This document shows positions 10,209-27,822 of a stretch of 53,671 nucleotides of DNA, piece after piece. Numbering within the stretch: the first letter of the stretch is position 1; every line of letters starts with the position of its first letter. Both the position numbers and the translations under genes were made by a program. The notes under the pieces were generated by a model, which was given only the letters and a program-made list of their open reading frames with translations, was not told the DNA's origin and did not search any database. The DNA lies in the IMG/VR virus record IMGVR_UViG_3300044756_000026, positions 1-53,671 of that record; one strand, written 5' to 3'. Origin of the DNA: a virus (taxonomy: Duplodnaviria > Caudoviricetes).

Positions 10209-10661
10209 ATGGCGACAACTACTAGAAATGGTCGCGCACCCACGAAGGCGGTAGCAACGAAGGCAGCGGCGTCACGTCGTAAGTCGACAGCACCGTCGAA
10301 GCGGGTGTCAGATATCCCCGGCGACATTGACTTCGACTGGCGTACGATCTACCCAGCCAAGGTCAAGCTGTATCGCTACGTGAGCGAAGACAATCACATG
10401 GTCTGCTTGCCACGTTTCGAGCAACCCGGTGAAGGCGAAATCTTCGGCATGATGCTGCTGGAGAAATCGGACCAGGAAATGCTCGTGGGGTTGATGCGCG
10501 ACTTGATCAACCAGTACGCGAAGAGCCCGGAGTATGCGCTGCGGGTGACGTATGAAGCTTTGCGTACGATGCACACAGAAGGCACAGTCTCCGAGTTCCT
10601 CGAAGGGTGGGCAAAGGACGCAGGGCTCGAAGTGGAAAAATCTGTGCCGTTATCCACTTAG
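10209..10661 (+). CDS. tail assembly chaperone (G)
   Basis: Between major tail and tape measure; slippery site near the 3' end. Confidence 0.82.
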   Translation: MATTTRNGRAPTKAVATKAAASRRKSTAPSKRVSDIPGDIDFDWRTIYPAKVKLYRYVSEDNHMVCLPRFEQPGEGEIFGMMLLEKSDQEMLVGLMRDLINQYAKSPEYALRVTYEALRTMHTEGTVSEFLEGWAKDAGLEVEKSVPLST

Positions 10662-11044
10662 CGCGTAAGCACGAGAGTGCGCTGCGTTGGGATCTCCTGT
10701 CGATGGGGCTGAGCCTCGAAACTGCTAGTCTGCCGTGGGGCGATTGGTGGGCTCTTGTCTCAGCCTCACCGCCGGGGTCTGCAATGTATCGCGCGGTGAA
10801 CCAAGAATATGGTCTTACCGAACATCTCCTGTGTACGATGCTAGATCGGTTGAACACGCAGATATGGATGAAAACGAAGGATGCTCACGCAGATCCTCCA
10901 CGTAATCGCCCTGAGCGTGTTCCTCGCCCCGGTGTGGAGAAGCGGCCAGATGTGCCATACAATGGCATGGGGCTACCACCGAACGTCGTTTCCATAGAAG
11001 AATTCATACGCCGACAGGCAGAAGAGCGGGAACGCAATGGCTGA
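10634..11044 (+). CDS. tail assembly chaperone -1 frameshift extension (GT)
   Basis: G GAA AAA at 10634-10640 leads into the -1 frame (KICAVIHLARKHESALRWDL...RP.RVPRPGV). Confidence 0.82.
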   Translation, partial: GKICAVIHLARKHESALRWDLLSMGLSLETASLPWGDWWALVSASPPGSAMYRAVNQEYGLTEHLLCTMLDRLNTQIWMKTKDAHADPPRNRPERVPRPGVEKRPDVPYNGMGLPPNVVSIEEFIRRQAEERERNG

Positions 11045-14000
11045 ACTTGCACAGGAATGGATCTCCATCCTTCCTGATGCCTCGAAGCTAGCAGCGGGTA
11101 TTAATGCAGCGGTTACTAAGGCGAAAGTCAAGCCGTTAGTTATTCCTGTTAAATTCGAGACCAAACAACTCAACGAGGCGATACAGAAACTTAAGCCGAA
11201 AGCGATTAAGCTTCCGGTAGCGATTGATCGTACGAGCCTCAACAAGTCCATTACTGACGTCTCCAAGACAAAGCTCAAGCCACTCAAGCTTGAGATTCAG
11301 GTAGACAAAACTGCTGTCAATCGTGGTATCGCCGAGGCTGAAAAGACTAAGCCCAAAGCGATCAAAGTACCAGTTGAACTTCAAACGCCCGTCACTCCGT
11401 TAACATCAGCGCTCAAAGGCACTGCGCAAACTGCTGGTCAGCAATACGGCCAGAGTATGTTGACTGGGGTAAATCAAGCAATAGCATCTAGTCCTGTTGC
11501 TCAGGCTGCTGGTACAACGGCGGGTAAGAAAGCTGCTGCCGGTGTCGCGGCTGGTGTGGCTTCTGGTGCTTCTCAGACGCAATCAAGCTTCGCTAAGATG
11601 TTCAATATCTCCAGTCACGTTAGCAGGATGCAGAGCAGTTTGCAGAATGCAACGTCTAGCTGGAACACAATGAGTCAAGCAGCGGATAAGACTCATGGGC
11701 GTATGGTCGGCGCTATTCAACAGATGATTCGTTACTCTTTGATCTTTACTGCTGGTGGTGCTATCTTCGGTGGCATGAAGTATCTCGTTACCACAGGCAT
11801 GGAGTTTGATGATACGCTGCATCTGCTTGGTGCTACGACTAAGGCTAACAATGATCAGATGACCGCGATGAGCGATACTGCTCGCGCGCTCGGTCGTGAC
11901 ATGTCGCTTCCTGCGACGTCCGCGAACGATGCTGCAGCGGCGATGCTCGCAATGACGCAGGCAGGATTCAATGTAGACCAAGCTATGTCTGCTGCACGCG
12001 GATCGCTACAACTTGCAACTGCAACTAATATTGAAGCATCTGATTCTGGCAAGATCGTTGCTACCACACTGAACTCATTCCATCGTCCTGCTGAAGATGC
12101 CACTAAAGCAGTTGACTTGCTGACCAACGTATTCCTGAAGTCTGGCGCACCGATCAACGACATTGCCCTCGCATTCCAACAGGCTGCCACAGTTGGCGGC
12201 ATCTTCGGTCTGTCAATGGAAGATACTGCTGCGACAATGGCGCTGCTAGCGAAGAACGGTATCCGTGGTTCTGACGCTGGCACGCTGCTCAAAACAATGC
12301 TCGCCGGTTTGACCGATCAAGGCAAGCCTGCTCAAGAAGCAATCCACGAACTCGGCCTGACAGTCAACGATGCTAACGGCAACTTCGTCGGTATGCAGTC
12401 GATCATGGAACAGTTGAATGCTGCACGTGGTCGTATGACACAAGCTGATTACGCTGGTGCATCTGCCACACTGTTCGGTACAGACGCAATCCGTATTGCT
12501 GGTGTGGCTGCTACTGGTACTGCTGACGCATGGAAAGAAATGCGCGATGCAGTCGTCGAGCAAGGCACTGCTCAGCGTGTGGCTGAATCTCGTATGCAAG
12601 GCTTGCCCGGTGCAGTCGAGAAGGTCAAGAACTCATTCGAAGGGCTGTCGCTTGCGATCTACGATATGGTCAAGGGTCCGCTGACGACGATTGCCACTGG
12701 TGTGGCTGAAGGGTTGAGCGGATTCACTGAGTGGATCACCGGCAGTAGCACAAGTCTCAAGGTGTTCGGCGGCGTGCTTGAATATGTCGCCATCACTGTT
12801 GGTCTCTGCGCTGTTGCATTCGGCGCATGGAAGATTGCGACATTGGCACAGACGGCTGCGATGTGGCTGTTGGATGCTGCGTTGAATGCGAACCCAATCT
12901 CGCTTATCATCATTGCCATTGCTGCTGTGATCGCTGCATTGGTTCTGTTGTATCAGCACAATGAAGGATTCCGCAACTTCGTCAATGCGCTATGGGAAGG
13001 CATCAAGGTAGCCTTCGATAAGATCATGGTAGCAGTGCATTGGCTGGTGGAGCAGTGGAATGCTGCATGGCCTACGATCAAGACAGTACTGGAAACTGTC
13101 TGGAACGTTATTAAAACTATCTTTACCGCCATCGGCGAAACTTGCACATGGTTGTGGCAGAACATCATCGTGCCCGCATTCGAAGGCATCAGTAATGCCA
13201 TCAGCGTAGCATGGGATATCATCAAGCTTCCGTTCCAGCTGTTCGAAGCGGCGATGAGAGTTCTCGGACCGATTGCAATGGCGCTTTGGGATGTGTATAT
13301 TCAGCCAGCATGGGAGTTCATTAAGAATGCTATCTCTGCTGCTTGGGACTTCATGTCGCCGATCTTTGATACCATCGGTGCAGCATTCAGCAAGCTAGGC
13401 GATGTTGCTAAAGCTGGATTCAATGCCTTCGGTGATGTTGCCAAGACAGTCGGTAGTGCTGTCAAGGACGTGTGGGATGGGCTGTGGAACATACTGAAGA
13501 TTCCACTGCACGGTCTTGGTAACTTCCTCGTTGGTATTCCTGACACTGTTCTCGGCGTTAAGATTGATTTCATTTCTGACGTCCATGACTGGGGTAAGAC
13601 GCTCCAAGGGTTGCGCACCGGCGGTATCCTGCGAGGGCCGGGTACTGGCACGTCAGACTCGATCCTAGCGACCAATAGCAGTGGTGTACCGACGGCGCGT
13701 GTATCGAACGGCGAAGGTGTTGTGCCGGCAGCACCACTGAAGACTCCAATGGGTATGGCGCTATTCAATACACTGCTTGGTATGGCTGGTGGCGGACGCT
13801 TGCCGACAGGTGCGATCATTTGGCCACCACAACCTGTTGGTCCAGTTGACAAGACACGTCCGGGTGGTGTGCCTGATCTTACTGGTCATCTGCCTGGTCC
13901 ACACCTACCTGATTGGAGCGGCACATTCGGTCCACCTGATGCTGGATGGTGGGATCGACCGATCAATCCTGATGATATTTTGTTCCCAGAACTTCAACCG

Positions 14001-15749
14001 CCCTGGATGCAAGACTGGTTGAAGAAGCATCCGCCGAAGGGTTGGAAGGGCAAGCGTATTGAAGGATACCGTACGGGTGGATTTATGCAGGTGCCTTACG
14101 CGTCTACCTTCATGAAGTCTGTACGAGGATTCGCTGGTGGCGGTGTGGTCACTGATGAAGAGAAGTCGCGTCTTGGTGGCGGTACTGTTAATCAGTCAAT
14201 TCTCGAAGCGATCCGTGAAACTAATCCTCGAGCGGTGCTGACGAGTGGCTATACTGATCACGCAATGGACGGGGGATATCACCCGAAGAAGAAGGCTATC
14301 GACATTGACCCATCAGATGCGAACCTGCGTGCTGCATGGGCGATGCGTGATGACTTGGTGATGATCATCCACGACGACCCGAAGTACGTGTGGTATAACG
14401 TCGGCGGCCAACGTGCTGAAGGTGCAGCGGCGCGTGCGATATACGGCGAAGCGACGATGAGAGATCACGGCAATCACATTCACCTCGCAGCCGAACATGC
14501 AGTCGGTCCGGTTAGCGGAGGTGTTCGTGGTGCGGCTGGTCCAGACATAAGCGAGTTGACGAGTTCGTCGTCGCCTGATGAAGTTGCAGCGGCGATCATT
14601 GCTGAAGCTCAGAAGCGTGGGTTCAGCAAGGAAGAAACGATTGCTATTCTTTCCACAGCACTGCAGGAATCCGGTCTTGATCCTAAAGCAGTTGGTGGCG
14701 GCGGTGCATGGAAAGGTATCTTCCAACAGGACAAGTCGTATCCACAGCGTGAATCTCCGGCAGGTCAAGTAGGTGGATTCTTCGAACGACTCGGCGGACC
14801 TGGTGGTGATATCTGGGAAAAGATATTCACACTGCAGCAAGGTAAATCGTCTACGTCTCCGGGCGCACGTACTGGTTACATGGGCGAGATTCAATCGCAG
14901 AAGGGTCGCGCTGAAGGACTGTATGCAAGTGCTGCTACTTCGTCCTATACAAATGCTGGTGGTCATTACGAGGTCGATGAAAAGAAGGTTCGTGAAGCAG
15001 AAGAGAAGGTCACTGATACACAGAACCGACTCGACGTTGCGAACCAGCGCTTGAAGGAATACACAGACAAGCGTGCTGCTGGTGAGAAGGTTAAGGACTC
15101 AACGATTCAAGCTGCGCAGGATCAAGTCGATAAGCTGACACGCGAAGTGCAAGATGCGAAGGATGACCTCGAGACTGCGAAGCAAGGTAAGTTCGTTAAG
15201 GACAAGGGAGACAAAGCAGAAAGCGGAGCCAAATCCACTGGCAAGAAACAAGGTGCAGATCTTGATACCAAATCACTTGGTAAGATGTTCGTTGAAGGCA
15301 TGTTTGAGACTATCGGCCTAGATGGATCCGTGCTCGACAATCCGTTTGAATGGCCATCAGTCAAGTCAGGTATGGCGCTGTTCAATTACGGTATGGGCTT
15401 GGCGAAGTTCGCAGGTACAGACTGGGTTGATGAGAACGGTAATCCTAAGCAAGGACCTGACAATCCGTGGACTGGTCAAGCACAAGGTGGTGCTGGTGGA
15501 ACTGGTGCTCCGGGTGGTGGCGACATGGGCATTGGTGCGCTTACTGGTATCGGTGATGTGCTCGGCGTACAGTTCCCAGAAGAACAAAAGCATCAAGGTA
15601 CGGGCAATGAGCCTGGTCCGGGCGTAGACAACTCCATGAACGTTAACATAGAAAATGCGGGCATGACTCAAGAACAAGTAGCAGCAAGCGTGACTGAACC
15701 ACAGCGACAGCAGGCGCGTCGTTATACTCCACCGAATGACGGAGGCTAG
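11037..15749 (+). CDS. tape measure protein with C-terminal peptidoglycan-hydrolase-like domains
   Basis: 1570 aa; TP901-like core (GIRGSDAGT.LK.ML); W-periodic repeats; GPGTGTSDSI. Confidence 0.95.
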   Translation: MAELAQEWISILPDASKLAAGINAAVTKAKVKPLVIPVKFETKQLNEAIQKLKPKAIKLPVAIDRTSLNKSITDVSKTKLKPLKLEIQVDKTAVNRGIAEAEKTKPKAIKVPVELQTPVTPLTSALKGTAQTAGQQYGQSMLTGVNQAIASSPVAQAAGTTAGKKAAAGVAAGVASGASQTQSSFAKMFNISSHVSRMQSSLQNATSSWNTMSQAADKTHGRMVGAIQQMIRYSLIFTAGGAIFGGMKYLVTTGMEFDDTLHLLGATTKANNDQMTAMSDTARALGRDMSLPATSANDAAAAMLAMTQAGFNVDQAMSAARGSLQLATATNIEASDSGKIVATTLNSFHRPAEDATKAVDLLTNVFLKSGAPINDIALAFQQAATVGGIFGLSMEDTAATMALLAKNGIRGSDAGTLLKTMLAGLTDQGKPAQEAIHELGLTVNDANGNFVGMQSIMEQLNAARGRMTQADYAGASATLFGTDAIRIAGVAATGTADAWKEMRDAVVEQGTAQRVAESRMQGLPGAVEKVKNSFEGLSLAIYDMVKGPLTTIATGVAEGLSGFTEWITGSSTSLKVFGGVLEYVAITVGLCAVAFGAWKIATLAQTAAMWLLDAALNANPISLIIIAIAAVIAALVLLYQHNEGFRNFVNALWEGIKVAFDKIMVAVHWLVEQWNAAWPTIKTVLETVWNVIKTIFTAIGETCTWLWQNIIVPAFEGISNAISVAWDIIKLPFQLFEAAMRVLGPIAMALWDVYIQPAWEFIKNAISAAWDFMSPIFDTIGAAFSKLGDVAKAGFNAFGDVAKTVGSAVKDVWDGLWNILKIPLHGLGNFLVGIPDTVLGVKIDFISDVHDWGKTLQGLRTGGILRGPGTGTSDSILATNSSGVPTARVSNGEGVVPAAPLKTPMGMALFNTLLGMAGGGRLPTGAIIWPPQPVGPVDKTRPGGVPDLTGHLPGPHLPDWSGTFGPPDAGWWDRPINPDDILFPELQPPWMQDWLKKHPPKGWKGKRIEGYRTGGFMQVPYASTFMKSVRGFAGGGVVTDEEKSRLGGGTVNQSILEAIRETNPRAVLTSGYTDHAMDGGYHPKKKAIDIDPSDANLRAAWAMRDDLVMIIHDDPKYVWYNVGGQRAEGAAARAIYGEATMRDHGNHIHLAAEHAVGPVSGGVRGAAGPDISELTSSSSPDEVAAAIIAEAQKRGFSKEETIAILSTALQESGLDPKAVGGGGAWKGIFQQDKSYPQRESPAGQVGGFFERLGGPGGDIWEKIFTLQQGKSSTSPGARTGYMGEIQSQKGRAEGLYASAATSSYTNAGGHYEVDEKKVREAEEKVTDTQNRLDVANQRLKEYTDKRAAGEKVKDSTIQAAQDQVDKLTREVQDAKDDLETAKQGKFVKDKGDKAESGAKSTGKKQGADLDTKSLGKMFVEGMFETIGLDGSVLDNPFEWPSVKSGMALFNYGMGLAKFAGTDWVDENGNPKQGPDNPWTGQAQGGAGGTGAPGGGDMGIGALTGIGDVLGVQFPEEQKHQGTGNEPGPGVDNSMNVNIENAGMTQEQVAASVTEPQRQQARRYTPPNDGG

Positions 15750-23911: not shown

Positions 23912-24140
23912 CGGTACAGCAACAGCTGCACTACAAGAACAGGTTGACATCCTTGCCTGGTTGCACGCAGAGCAGCGCTTCGAGTATATGGAACTCGTTG
24001 CTCGCGTGATGAACGTCGGCAAGGTATTGGCGGGTCTCGTAGTGCAGAACGCACAACCGCAAATTCAAGAACAGCTACAGCAGCAAGTTCTCAATCAGTT
24101 GATGACCGGTGGCGTGGTCGTCAAAGATACGGGCGGTTGA
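23898..24140 (+). CDS. hypothetical protein
   Basis: GGAGGAG RBS; overlaps both neighbours. Confidence 0.55.
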   Translation: MTAGNGTATAALQEQVDILAWLHAEQRFEYMELVARVMNVGKVLAGLVVQNAQPQIQEQLQQQVLNQLMTGGVVVKDTGG

Positions 24141-24631
24141 TGTGGCGATGGGGTATTAGTGTACTGACAGGGGCGCTGTTGTTCGCGCCGTGTGCTAATG
24201 CCGAACCTGATGTTGGTCCAGGTGGTGTTGGTGGGCCGGGAGGTCTTGGTGGTCCAGGTGGTATCGGACCGGACTTTGCACCTTCATCTGCTACGTTGTT
24301 CATGTGTCCGGGTCGAGGCGGCGCTGCTGATGTTCTCGGCTTTGGGGGTGGCTACTGTGACTTCAATTTCACACCAGTTAAGTTAGATACAGAAGGTCAT
24401 TATGGAGTCATGCATACCCACTGTGAATGGGGCGGCGCACGGCCATTGCTTGAAACCTGGAATTGCTGGCGAGTATTTCCTGGCCAGCCTGATCACCCGG
24501 CGCTCCCTGATCCTGATATTATCCCTGACGGCATGGGAGTTCCTTGGGCAATTCAAGGACCGGTTCCTGATGATCAGTGGCCACCTCCTGGACTGCAGCC
24601 TGGGCCAGAGTTATTGAATCCAACCGGATAG
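24137..24631 (+). CDS. secreted Gly/Pro/Cys-rich protein
   Basis: Signal-peptide-like N-terminus ending ANA-E; four Cys in the mature part. Confidence 0.65.
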   Translation: MMWRWGISVLTGALLFAPCANAEPDVGPGGVGGPGGLGGPGGIGPDFAPSSATLFMCPGRGGAADVLGFGGGYCDFNFTPVKLDTEGHYGVMHTHCEWGGARPLLETWNCWRVFPGQPDHPALPDPDIIPDGMGVPWAIQGPVPDDQWPPPGLQPGPELLNPTG

Positions 24632-24640
24632 GAGAAAGGA

Positions 24641-26020
24641 ATGGCATATTATTCTAAAGATGGCATCGCTATCGCCATCATTCACGAGGGTCAGCGTCGT
24701 GGCATTACCCCGAAGGGTATACAGATTGCCATAAGCACTGGCCTCGTCGAGTCGGATCTGACGATGCATTGCAATCATCAAGATCCAGAAAGTCAGAAGT
24801 ATCCGTACGACGCAATCAGCTACGACTACGATTCGTCGGGTGTGTTTCAGCAGCGCCCTGCATATTGGGGCACCGCACGGGAACGCATGGACGTCGTGTA
24901 TTCTGCAGGTATGTTCTACGATTCATTGGTAGCTCAGAGAATAGGCGATCAGGATTACAACACGGACGCGACCACACCTGGTGGCTGGGCGTATATGGTG
25001 CAGCAGTGCGCCGAGGAATACGCCTACCGCTACGATGAACGCTTCCCCGAAGCCTGTCGGATTTACGACAACTTGGCTTGGATGGAGTGCCCGCATCAAC
25101 CCGGTGAATGTCGCGTCTCTGGTGACATGGGGCCAATGGTCAGTGAGACCTGGATGACAGAAACCGACGGCGGCACAAGCTTCGGTGAAATCATTCTGCC
25201 GTACGATCACAGCATCGTGCCACAGGAAACTGGGTACTGGTGTGGGCCGGCCTCAACACAGGTCGTGCTCAACGGTCAAGGTATCTTCATCAGTGAACAA
25301 CAGTTGGCTGCTGAGATGGGCACGCACTCCGGTGGTACTGATTACATCGGACAGATAGAAATCGTGCTCGACTGGTATCTACCACACATGAATCACGTGA
25401 CAGTAGACCAACCGTATGATCCGATGAGTTACGAAGACAAGGAGCGGCTATGGGCAAACCTGATCCGCGCGATGGCTGATGAGCCCCGTGGTGGTGTGGT
25501 CATGAACTGGGTCGCACCGCCTGGGAACTATCCCATCGGCATCAAAGGATCACAGTCACCGTCTTACGGTGGCGGCACCATTTATCACTACGTAGCCTGC
25601 ATGGGCATTGACGACAATCCAAACCAGCGAGCATGCTGGATTGCAGATTCCGGCTTCCACCCATTTGGCTACTGGTGTTCGTTCGATCAGGTCAGCACAT
25701 TAATTCCACCCAAGGGTTACTGCTACCCAGCAGTTGAACCCGCAGCAGGATCAGGAGATATCGACATGGCTAACGTACCACAGGAACAATGGGACAAACT
25801 GGTTGCAGATGTAAAAGACATTCGTACACAGCTGCGCGGTCCTGATGATCAAGGATGGGAAGTGCTTGGTCAAAATTCAGCAGGACAAAACCTTTCGGTT
25901 GTTGACGCCCTCGGGTCTGTCAAGCATACCGTCGAAGGGCAGCCGCCCCCTTTCCAGAAATCCCTCCCACCCAGCCAGGTTCGGGGGAAGGTACGCCGAC
26001 CGAACGACACGCGCTCCTAA
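24641..26020 (+). CDS. lysA: lysin A (transglycosylase-like N-domain, C39-like peptidase, C-terminal domain)
   Basis: VESDL...GVFQQ; QETGYWCGPAS...HY...IADSG; C-terminal QLRGP..GW..LGQN..G.NL..VDAL. Confidence 0.88.
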   Translation: MAYYSKDGIAIAIIHEGQRRGITPKGIQIAISTGLVESDLTMHCNHQDPESQKYPYDAISYDYDSSGVFQQRPAYWGTARERMDVVYSAGMFYDSLVAQRIGDQDYNTDATTPGGWAYMVQQCAEEYAYRYDERFPEACRIYDNLAWMECPHQPGECRVSGDMGPMVSETWMTETDGGTSFGEIILPYDHSIVPQETGYWCGPASTQVVLNGQGIFISEQQLAAEMGTHSGGTDYIGQIEIVLDWYLPHMNHVTVDQPYDPMSYEDKERLWANLIRAMADEPRGGVVMNWVAPPGNYPIGIKGSQSPSYGGGTIYHYVACMGIDDNPNQRACWIADSGFHPFGYWCSFDQVSTLIPPKGYCYPAVEPAAGSGDIDMANVPQEQWDKLVADVKDIRTQLRGPDDQGWEVLGQNSAGQNLSVVDALGSVKHTVEGQPPPFQKSLPPSQVRGKVRRPNDTRS

Positions 26021-26934
26021 CTTGCTCGGGAACGTGGGCGCCTCCGGGCGTTGGCTTTCCTAGTGATGTGGCCAACGGGTGCGCGGACGTCTGTGAGGAA
26101 ATACCTGTACAGGCGCCTTGGTCGTTTGGTCCACTTGGTGGTGCCGGCGACGAAGGGTTCCACTCACCTAGCTACGCGGAGTCTGTGAACATCGGTGTGG
26201 ATTGGGCAGTCGATTGGTTGCTTGCTCGACCACACCGTACATTCCTCCTAGGCGGCTACAGTCAAGGTGGTGAGTGCGCGTCACGCATTTACGAAGAAAC
26301 GCTCACGGGACGCCTACAGGGACTGCGACACAACTACGTCGGCGGGTTCACGTTCGGCAATCCCTCACGACAACTGGAGCATACGTTCCATGATGGACCG
26401 GCACGACGCGGCGTAGGTATCGCTGAGTTCAGGCTGTCTGACATGGGAGATGACTGGGCTGATGAAGTGGAACAAGGTGATATGTACGGCGCCGTTCCCA
26501 AAGGCCTATCCGGAGAGATCATGCGAGATGTCTACACTCTGTGCACTGAAATGGAAATGCATAGTGGTGCAGCAGCATTCGCGCAGACGTTCGTCTATAA
26601 CTGCATCGAGATTGTGCAGAACTTGGACGGCGATGCCCACGATGATCTGGTCGCGCTTTCTTACGACATGGGTCTGGACTTCAGTCATGCAGTCAGACTG
26701 GACACTCGTCGCATTGAACGTCGGCTTGGTGACCTGATACCTGAAGGTGCATTGTCTGTCAAAGGTATCGCGGCAGCAGTTACTGCGGCTGTCATCGCCA
26801 TCTCCTTCTTCGCTCAAGGTACACGTCCACACATCGAGTATCACATTCGCGAGGTGTTCCCCGGTCAAACCTATCTGCAGCATGCAATCCAGCATGTTCG
26901 GCACTGGGCCGGTACTCGGCAACCCACAGAGTGA
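25954..26934 (+). CDS. lysB: lysin B (cutinase-like esterase); 5' end probably reached by -1 frameshift; first start codon is GTG 26068
   Basis: GYSQG nucleophile elbow, FGNP.R, GDMY, H..Y; frame open from 25906 and encodes ALLTCSGTW upstream of any start codon. Confidence 0.85.
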   Translation, partial: PEIPPTQPGSGEGTPTERHALLTCSGTWAPPGVGFPSDVANGCADVCEEIPVQAPWSFGPLGGAGDEGFHSPSYAESVNIGVDWAVDWLLARPHRTFLLGGYSQGGECASRIYEETLTGRLQGLRHNYVGGFTFGNPSRQLEHTFHDGPARRGVGIAEFRLSDMGDDWADEVEQGDMYGAVPKGLSGEIMRDVYTLCTEMEMHSGAAAFAQTFVYNCIEIVQNLDGDAHDDLVALSYDMGLDFSHAVRLDTRRIERRLGDLIPEGALSVKGIAAAVTAAVIAISFFAQGTRPHIEYHIREVFPGQTYLQHAIQHVRHWAGTRQPTE

Positions 26935-27282
26935 GGACGTATGTATCACACCATAGGCCGAACCGTCAGCGCACAGAGGTACGCGCGCTCCCGCGGATTG
27001 TGTGGTGATATTGGCCCGTTTCGCCACGTGTGTACGAGGTGGGCCAACCATAAGGGTCGACATGGTGGTGTGTTACAGGAGCCTTCGGATGTCGGTGCAA
27101 TATCCGCGCAGTGGGGCTAACTGACTGGGTGGGGTCGTTGGTCGTTATTCGCCTTTCTCCCGGCGACCTCACCCCCAGTCACCTGCGCGTTTGTCGATGT
27201 GAGATCCTGTGTGTTATCGTATGCAAGACGCTGAAACATACAGCGCTCACACGATGTAAACAACAATGAAAGAGGTTGAGAA

Positions 27283-27822
27283 ATGGCGACAGCAACGCGT
27301 TCGCGCAAGGCACCTGCCAAGACGGCGGCACCTGCTCCGAAGCGTACGTCACGCGCAAAGACAACGACTGCTCCTCCGGCGAAGACGGCGAAGGCGGCAC
27401 CTGCTGCCAAGCGTGGTCGTCCGAAGGCAAGCGCCGACAAGAAGAACATCACCTGGTTGCAGGAGCACCTCGAGTCGAACCACGGCATCGAAGCCGACGG
27501 TACGAAGATCCGGCAGGTGCTGCGTCAACTCGTGAAGGACGGCGCGTTGCCGGAACGCGAGGGAGGCACGACGTACGAGTTCACGGGTCTGAAGGATCCG
27601 CAGGTCGTCGAGCTGATCAAGAAGCTCAAGAGCCCCGGTCGCAAGAAGGCAGCGGGCGCCGCTCCGAAGCGCGGACGCAAGAAGGCAGAACCGGTCGAAG
27701 AGGTCGACGAAGATGTCGAAGACCTTGATGACGAGGAGGAGTACGAGGACGAAGACGCCGACGAAGAGCTCGAAGACGACGAGGAATACGAAGACGAGGA
27801 CGAAGACCTCGACGACGAGTAA
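27283..27822 (+). CDS. histone/HMGA-like DNA-binding protein
   Basis: PAK repeats, KRGRPK AT-hook and KRGRKK, central helical domain, long D/E tail. Confidence 0.7.
   Translation: MATATRSRKAPAKTAAPAPKRTSRAKTTTAPPAKTAKAAPAAKRGRPKASADKKNITWLQEHLESNHGIEADGTKIRQVLRQLVKDGALPEREGGTTYEFTGLKDPQVVELIKKLKSPGRKKAAGAAPKRGRKKAEPVEEVDEDVEDLDDEEEYEDEDADEELEDDEEYEDEDEDLDDE

Follow-up and report, generated by a model that had tools for sequence, protein, structure and literature searches.

A candidate programmed -1 frameshift linking the lysin A and lysin B genes of a tailed phage

How does a phage translate its lysin B (LysB) when the reading frame that encodes it offers no usable start codon ahead of the enzyme's first core strand? 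The question is raised by the lysis cassette of a Caudoviricetes virus, IMG/VR record IMGVR_UViG_3300044756_000026, a complete record of 53,671 base pairs (bp; ~53% G+C) called a soil phage, the whole of which we refer to as the window. The cassette, in which the frames of lysin A (LysA) and LysB overlap over 25906-26020, comes after the tape-measure gene (11037-15749) and the minor tail genes. Frameshifting by -1 is textbook knowledge for the tail chaperones and some capsid genes of tailed phages, and a first-pass annotation of the window had proposed that LysB, too, is made by a programmed -1 frameshift, out of lysA. Comparison with related loci makes it highly probable, in our assessment, that a programmed -1 tandem slip on a C CCU UUC heptamer yields both LysA and a LysA-LysB fusion.

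Reading frames, start codons and fold at the lysA-lysB junction

The elements of the junction are the following:

24641-26020 (+): lysA zero-frame open reading frame (ORF), 459 amino acids (aa), frame 2, with its stop TAA at 26018-26020
25903-25905 (+): TGA closing the -1 (LysB) frame upstream, from ORF and frame reading
25948-25954 (+): slippery heptamer C CCT TTC, proposed site of the -1 shift, phased by hand and kept in relatives
25954-26934 (+): LysB frame as read after the proposed shift, 326 codons plus stop, encoding a Pro/Gly linker and then the predicted cutinase-fold esterase
26008-26037 (+): first core beta-strand (HALLTC) and invariant G-T-W loop, from model and alignments, upstream of every canonical start
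26068-26070 (+): GTG, first canonical start codon of the LysB frame, taken here to encode the conserved Val in a PSDVA motif
26260-26262 (+): Ser codon of G-Y-S-Q-G, presumed nucleophile, S105, invariant in the alignment
26479-26481 and 26830-26832 (+): Asp and His codons of LysB, D178 being invariant and H295 at least 90% conserved

LysA provides the peptidoglycan-hydrolase module(s) of the cassette, from a gene that follows the minor tail genes and directly precedes LysB. It carries a lysozyme-like module at the N-terminus, then a C39-like peptidase, and a single wall-binding-type repeat toward the C-terminus, with a Pfam match to PF13529 (Peptidase_C39_2) at residues 192-337 (E 8e-12) and PHROG matches to phrog_700 (residues 1-156), phrog_1519 (183-373) and phrog_6007, all annotated 'endolysin'. 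Its final 21 codons, past the heptamer, form a non-conserved tail.

The LysB frame (frame 1, -1 relative to LysA) is open from 25906 to its stop at 26932-26934, a span of 342 codons, and the TGA at 25903-25905 closes it upstream, so any shift into LysB must come after that codon. An ORF scan confirms the absence, already remarked in the first-pass annotation, of ATG, GTG and TTG in this frame from 25906 until GTG 26068, and inspection by eye finds no purine-rich Shine-Dalgarno (SD) sequence within the 20 nucleotides (nt) before that GTG. Translation likewise reproduces the quoted -1 reading ...AAAPFPEIPPTQPGSGEGTPTERHALLTCSGTWAPPGVGFPSDVANG..., in which a Pro/Gly linker, an apparent first beta-strand and a GT motif had been recognized upstream of the GTG. 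The downstream ORF of the overlap is thus left without a usable start of its own.

Homology searches and modeling both extend the LysB fold upstream of GTG 26068. By tblastn against 50,697 phage records, 2004 LysB-bearing records match, all below 60% identity (the best, CELFI LysB, at 45.8%), in alignments that begin at open-frame residues 23-35, on a count in which GTG 26068 is residue 55; the match to phrog_102 (E 2e-74) begins at residue 30. A profile of four relatives matches D29 LysB (3HC7; E 3.4e-4) and sets LLTFAGTW on 3HC7_A residues 6-13, so that the stretch before the GTG, which the first-pass annotation had singled out for comparison with D29 LysB, does fall on the core of that structure's N-terminus. 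In all three comparisons (tblastn, PHROG and PDB profile), the matched region starts ~20-30 residues ahead of the GTG. No Pfam family matches the LysB frame at E values up to 0.01 in a Pfam copy that seems to be without PF27131, the family that the protein database lists for LysA-LysB fusion proteins.

An AlphaFold model built on a 19-sequence alignment, with residues counted from 25948, has a mean predicted local distance difference test score (pLDDT) of 76.5 and a predicted template-modeling score (pTM) of 0.78. Residues 1-17 form a disordered linker, followed by strand 21-26 (HALLTC, pLDDT ~86) and helix 37-44. Foldseek ranks 3HC7 first (E 1.1e-9, template-modeling score 0.60 on the target), with Rv3802c, MSMEG_6394 and fungal cutinases as the next matches. 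GTG 26068 encodes Val41, at least 90% conserved in the alignment, and a start there would remove strand 1 and the GTW loop because the codon sits inside helix 37-44. Eleven invariant columns lie upstream of it, and A22, L24, T25, G28, T29 and W30 are identical in all 19 sequences. The Ser of GYSQG and the Asp of GDMY align with 3HC7 in the profile alignment; on the model of D29 LysB, Ser105, Asp178 and His295 are the presumed catalytic triad. By profile and model, then, the LysB frame encodes a cutinase-fold mycolyl esterase whose activity is predicted. If the frameshift is real, gene finders will cut LysB down to a non-functional piece in each genome of this kind, and these gene calls would be corrected.

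The slippery heptamer and its conservation

The LysA-frame codons CCG CCC CCT TTC CAG place C CCT TTC in X XXY YYZ phase, from which a -1 slip leads into the LysB frame. This phasing, put forward in the first-pass annotation, stood up to checking by hand and by script, the latter placing the heptamer at -81 nt relative to the G of GTW, a distance divisible by 3. Read by eye, the stretch 25906-26005 contains no canonical in-phase heptamer other than C CCT TTC; G GGG AAG at 25984-25990 was set aside as a shift site, being non-canonical and mismatched at the first base on A-site re-pairing. By coordinate arithmetic, the product of a slip would run ...GQPPPF and then PEIPPTQPGSGEGTPTERHALLTCSGTW..., with 438 + 326 = 764 aa. 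Sharma et al. (2014, PMC4066793) count H_HH.U_UU.Y with the -1 motifs of highest efficiency in Escherichia coli, single out C_CC.U_UU.C as a high-level frameshifter there, and list C_CC.U_UU.A among the patterns that shift above 0.1% without stimulators.

We infer from this anatomy that lysA and lysB would act as one recoding unit. Most ribosomes would finish lysA at TAA 26018-26020 and release the 459-aa peptidoglycan hydrolase, while a fraction would slip back one base on C CCU UUC, with tRNA-Pro re-pairing from CCU to CCC and tRNA-Phe from UUC to UUU, and would then read on in the -1 frame, across the disordered Pro/Gly linker and through the cutinase-fold mycolyl esterase. The predicted 764-aa fusion would unite the esterase with the wall-binding repeat and the two modules that cut peptidoglycan. 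LysB would not occur in free form, as its first core strand has no usable start ahead of it, and with LysB obtained only via the slip, slip frequency would fix the ratio of LysA to LysA-LysB. The benefit, we infer, could be tethering or co-delivery, in which a LysB lacking both a wall-binding domain and a start of its own would ride on the wall-binding repeat of LysA.

Relatives of the junction (loci L005-L069) were gathered by scans of viral, metagenome and genome contig collections, and their junctions were read by script and, for several, by eye. The related set, with a LysB at least 49% identical to that of the window, holds 27 loci that include the junction, in addition to L034, which begins inside LysB. 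The first-pass annotation had pointed to related phages as the place to look for conservation of the heptamer and of the frame break, and both are present: in 24 of the 27 loci, representing 11 distinct sequences, LysB lies in the -1 frame of LysA and a phased heptamer occupies the homologous position. A conventional LysB start is found in none of the 27. The distinct split junctions are L021, L054, L033, L048, L022 and L047, each a singleton, and five groups: L006 (= L029, L030, L031, L046, L060), L023 (= L024), L032 (= L061), L027 (= L028, L058, L059) and L025 (= L026, L056, L057). Megablast of the lysA-lysB region against the 50,697 phage records gave no match, so this clade has no close isolate among those records. 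Its locus G+C content spans 0.46 (L006) to 0.69 (L032), a breadth that points to hosts differing widely in base composition, even though the presence of LysB is a sign of mycolic-acid bacteria.

With the window included, all 12 distinct split junctions carry the phased heptamer at the homologous site. L021 and L054 share C CCT TTC with the window, seven others have C CCT TTA, and L022 and L047 have A AAT TTA, a variant that alters both the sequence and the encoded residues, so that the slippery pattern is kept rather than its letters. In six of the 12, the -1 frame opens just one codon before the heptamer, via a TGA formed from GGT GAG, and in a seventh it does so two codons ahead, which pins the shift site in these seven junctions. 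Across the relatives, the zero-frame protein is kept up to ...GGEPP(F/L) and then runs into unrelated tails of 4-47 aa with stops at varying positions; the -1 frame, by contrast, is conserved from the linker onward.

The heptamer codons also run counter to codon bias, CCT and TTA being otherwise rare or absent in the GC-rich relatives. In L023, L032 and L025 (64-69% GC), TTA makes up 0/52, 0/27 and 0/45 of the Leu codons elsewhere in the same ORFs; for CCT among Pro codons the counts are 6/60, 0/33 and 1/42, and 1/22 in L021. The rare A-site codon UUA of the GC-rich relatives could add a pause. More distant LysB genes, at 46% identity or less and including those of Mycobacterium and Mycolicibacterium prophages, begin at an ATG or GTG placed ahead of the strand, in many cases overlapping the stop of LysA, and carry no heptamer at the corresponding site.

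Slippage of RNA polymerase rather than of the ribosome would lead to the same two proteins, through some mRNAs one base shorter or longer at the C5T3 run that encode the fusion in frame, and the site does contain short homopolymers. Yet 5 C and 3 T are shorter than the A/T runs known for transcriptional slippage, and what is conserved is XXXYYY in codon phase, AAATTT included, as tandem tRNA slippage requires; we consider transcriptional slippage extremely improbable.

The heptamer could also mark a mistake, an assembly or sequencing error of one base in the C5T3 run of a true in-frame fusion, given that the closest LysB relatives are such fusions (see below) and that the break falls at a short homopolymer. 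The first-pass annotation had itself named a one-base error in the C run as a finding that would overturn its proposal. None is present in a separately assembled contig of the probable source run, which covers 24600-27000 at a depth of ~10 with 0 differences and 0 gaps, although the comparison is between contigs, not raw reads, and these probably go back to the source run of the window itself and are no independent sample. A stronger argument than contig identity is the recurrence of the same break in the 11 other distinct sequences, two of which have AAATTTA and no C run. The window, moreover, has one wall-binding repeat and the nearest fusions two, so it is not their one-base variant, and we judge an error very unlikely. 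In another study, a freshwater-sediment contig of run X2 is identical over 173 nt of lysB (26019-26191), ending short of the heptamer, which hints at a very close relative in a second habitat; run X3 offers only a 47-nt match at <90%.

Natural fusions, candidate stimulators and independent initiation

The remaining three of the 27 loci (L005, L007 and L055) are single in-frame LysA-LysB ORFs. Confined to long proteins, a search of the protein database gave 11 fusions of 771-852 aa that combine a C39-like peptidase with a LysB domain (P0002, P0003, P0005-P0012 and P0015); two are the products of L005 and L055, and their source labels read 'hypothetical protein' or 'predicted chitinase'. P0005, P0006, P0007, P0009 and P0010 have in common with the window both the LysA N-terminus and LysB, with two wall-binding repeats versus one in the window. 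When P0007 was used as a query on viral contigs, the sole match was the contig of L005. The junction peptides of the nearest fusions mostly lack the F, L, K or N residue that a heptamer would need, and L055 encodes the same P-P-F by CCA CCG TTC, which is non-slippery. L005 (2964-2982) and L007 (2961-2979), on the other hand, keep a phased CCC CCT TTC/T. Three codons farther on, their -1 frame meets a stop (TAA or TGA), so that slipping would set LysA free on its own, opposite to what is proposed for the window. The proposal of a 459-aa LysA and a LysA-LysB of ~764 aa made by -1 shift thus gains support both from the conserved heptamer and frame break and from these natural fusions.

A maximum-likelihood LysB tree was computed from 26 domains (9 split, 12 fused and 5 conventional), leaving out the incomplete L033, L047 and L048, the duplicates L061, P0002 and P0008, and five proteins of 424-469 aa. 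Split and fused states interleave in it, with at least four changes on well-supported branches, a count that recombination could inflate; the window falls within a supported group that also holds five fusions, its top identity being 78%, to P0005. To judge from this tree, the two states are clearly interchangeable in evolution. We raise only tentatively the further idea that the heptamer is a two-way switch, in which a slip would extend LysA in the window and would release LysA in L005 and L007, as in dnaX, toggling by indels would retune the ratio to the host envelope, and the Pro-then-Gly linker would double as a stimulatory hairpin.

Since fused relatives exist, a one-base indel in a once-fused gene would give exactly such a picture, with lysB a decaying pseudogene severed from its start. 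The 342-codon frame is intact, however, with its presumed catalytic Ser and Asp invariant and its His nearly so, and the split loci, at 50-67% LysB identity, all keep both the open frame and the heptamer, which argues for purifying selection; decay is, in our estimate, about as improbable as a sequencing error.

Two elements flank the heptamer as candidate stimulators of the proposed slip:

25934-25939 (+): GAAGGG, SD-like element and possible stimulator, 8 nt upstream of the heptamer
25961-25988 (+): candidate stem-loop, 6 nt past the heptamer, 25961-25966 pairing with 25983-25988 by RNAfold around an inner stem of 3 bp

The GAAGGG just upstream, pointed out in the first-pass annotation, is indeed at 25934-25939, and most relatives have a purine-rich GAAGG, GGAGG or GGTGGTGAG 3-17 nt upstream of the heptamer. 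Because the element encodes a conserved E-G-G-E, selection at the RNA level and selection at the protein level are inseparable. The downstream hairpin is plausible as a stimulator. In the window it has a minimum free energy of -12 to -14 kcal/mol, at the 5.8th percentile of local 35-nt windows; against such local background, 8 of 13 loci lie at or below 0.06 (mean percentile 0.19). Hairpins begin 0-10 nt downstream of the heptamer in most loci, strong ones at 4-6 nt including a perfect 9-bp stem in L033 and one of -21.6 kcal/mol in L054, and a consensus fold of four sequences shows a 7-bp stem with one compensatory pair common to these four relatives.

Several observations nonetheless weigh against a programmed slip. 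Of the stem that had been proposed, the pairing of 25961-25966 with 25983-25988 is returned by RNAfold, yet the stability of the hairpin does not exceed that of dinucleotide shuffles (z +0.79 and +0.39), and z ranges from -2.48 to +1.29 across 12 loci, which is not significant. The advantage over background fades at 45 and 60 nt (0.24 and 0.26), the 35-nt length was picked post hoc, and some of the loci are related; downstream stability may be a mere effect of the codons of a Pro-then-Gly linker. Slippage with the tRNA pool and anti-SD sequence of the phage's own host is a prediction, and many of the related contigs may stem from one sampling campaign, though their sequences differ. The trans-frame protein, too, is a predicted product. 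Finally, a GTG or TTG lies 7-8 codons before the G of GTW in L027, L025, L022 and L047, from which a near-full LysB could be started independently.

This last observation is one of three that favor independent initiation of LysB, whether at a non-canonical start in the linker (e.g., ATC 25960 or ACG 25993) or at GTG 26068, with the overlap reflecting gene packing. The window has a strong SD-like GGGGGAAGG at 25983-25991, and the conventional relatives L035 to L040 start LysB with a start/stop overlap. The SD-like sequence, however, stands merely 1 nt from the ACG, no near-cognate codon is common to the relatives, and eight of the 12 distinct split junctions, the window's included, have no canonical start anywhere before the strand. 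GTG 26068 is the conserved helical Val, whose use would forfeit strand 1 and the GTW loop, and the position of the LysA stop, from -38 to +61 nt relative to GTW, implies no constant coupling geometry. Nor does independent initiation explain the conserved phased heptamer, the codons chosen against bias or the natural fusions. We regard it as unlikely, though as the foremost of the four alternatives to a programmed slip, which taken together retain a small share of the probability. Termination-reinitiation was rejected, as the LysA stop falls inside the strand 1 codons in the window and varies over the same range in the relatives.

Relation to known systems and neighboring genes

The closest parallel in phages is the tail assembly chaperone pair G/GT of lambda-like phages, which is reportedly expressed by a -1 frameshift. 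As there, the late genes lysA and lysB overlap with the second in the -1 frame and a phased heptamer in the overlap, and a short protein would be accompanied by a C-terminally extended fusion, presumably at a fixed ratio; the arrangement is conserved rather than the sequence. Unlike G/GT, the genes encode lysis enzymes, the extension is a complete catalytic domain, and relatives swap the frameshift for an in-frame fusion. OrfA/OrfAB of the IS3 family and E. coli dnaX, as portrayed in excerpts of PMC4066793, similarly exhibit a bacterial-type -1 shift on X_XX.Z_ZZ.N, with an upstream SD-like element and a downstream hairpin as optional stimulators. In IS3 elements the fusion carries the full function; in dnaX it is the truncated product that arises by shifting, an outcome also expected of a shift in L005 and L007. 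The differences from both are the heptamer, C_CC.U_UU.C/A instead of the usual A_AA.A_AA.G, the stimulators, which are only candidates here, and the class of gene.

Among lysins, lysA of the mycobacteriophage Ms6 likewise provides, according to parts of PMC3111421, two lysin isoforms that share a module from one lysis region; there, unlike here, the second gene is embedded in frame, with no frame change and no involvement of LysB. Conventional LysB proteins (D29 gp12, 3HC7; CELFI gp27) are the same cutinase-fold esterases with GYSQG and are often tethered to a wall-binding module, such as the N-terminal peptidoglycan-binding domain reported for the LysB of a Mycobacterium fortuitum prophage (PMC10888907). 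CELFI LysB, too, has its own wall-binding domain, whereas that of the window has none; conventional enzymes have their own start, whereas here the tether would be the whole of LysA and there is no start. The metagenomic in-frame fusions (the P proteins and L005, L007 and L055) agree with the window in domain order and linker position, with LysB up to 78% identical, but are single ORFs, in which L055 has lost the slippery codons and L005 and L007 keep them.

Full-text literature searches found neither a -1 frameshift joining LysA to LysB nor natural LysA-LysB fusions, and gave only tail-gene frameshifts, the in-frame second endolysin of Ms6 and gene-order notation. Term look-ups in the endolysin surveys of Payne and Hatfull 2012 and Pollenz et al. 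2022 did not return 'fused' or 'frameshift' applied to lysins. The PRFect paper states that some unjoined frameshift predictions fell in lysins, citing a 1994 Lactococcus paper, and, as a general principle, that frameshifting may be at work where genes form a single fused ORF in certain genomes but occupy different frames in others; its supplementary tables may list lysin gene pairs among the unjoined predictions, which would touch on novelty. With that proviso, a new use of the known -1 frameshift mechanism, in lysis enzymes, appears well supported by the comparative evidence. If it holds, a clade of phages of mycolic-acid bacteria would deliver its outer-membrane esterase only as a passenger of the endolysin, in a ratio set by the ribosome. 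The fusion would offer a natural design for chimeric anti-mycobacterial lysins, with peptidoglycan hydrolase, wall-binding repeat and esterase in one chain, and the natural variants (split, fused with heptamer, fused without heptamer) would lend themselves to the study of how recoding sites are gained and lost.

Elsewhere in the window, two ORFs just before the tape-measure gene (10209-10661 and 10607-11044) resemble a tail-assembly-chaperone pair, the second ORF being in the -1 frame. Their overlap contains GTG GAA AAA TCT (~10639-10650), a possible A_AAA-type slip site that falls short of a full heptamer, and the pair would serve well as a built-in positive control when frameshifting is studied in this phage.

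Adjoining lysA upstream, 24137-24631 (+) encodes a 164-aa protein with a signal-peptide-like N-terminus and a conserved core rich in Cys and Trp (…YCDF.F.P…CEWGG…WNCWRV.PGQPDHP.LPDPDI.PDG.GVPWAI.GP.P.DQWPPPGL). A PHROG match to it was not found, and by eye it is homologous to the product of the gene upstream of lysA in L006 (L006 723-1481); it may be a conserved, secreted partner of the lysis cassette. Downstream of lysB there is no holin-like gene, 26935-27282 being a gap of ~350 nt without a convincing ORF. It is followed at 27283-27822 by a gene whose 179-aa product is rich in Lys, Ala and Pro at the N-terminus, has a long acidic tail of Asp and Glu, and matches phrog_16498 (unknown function).

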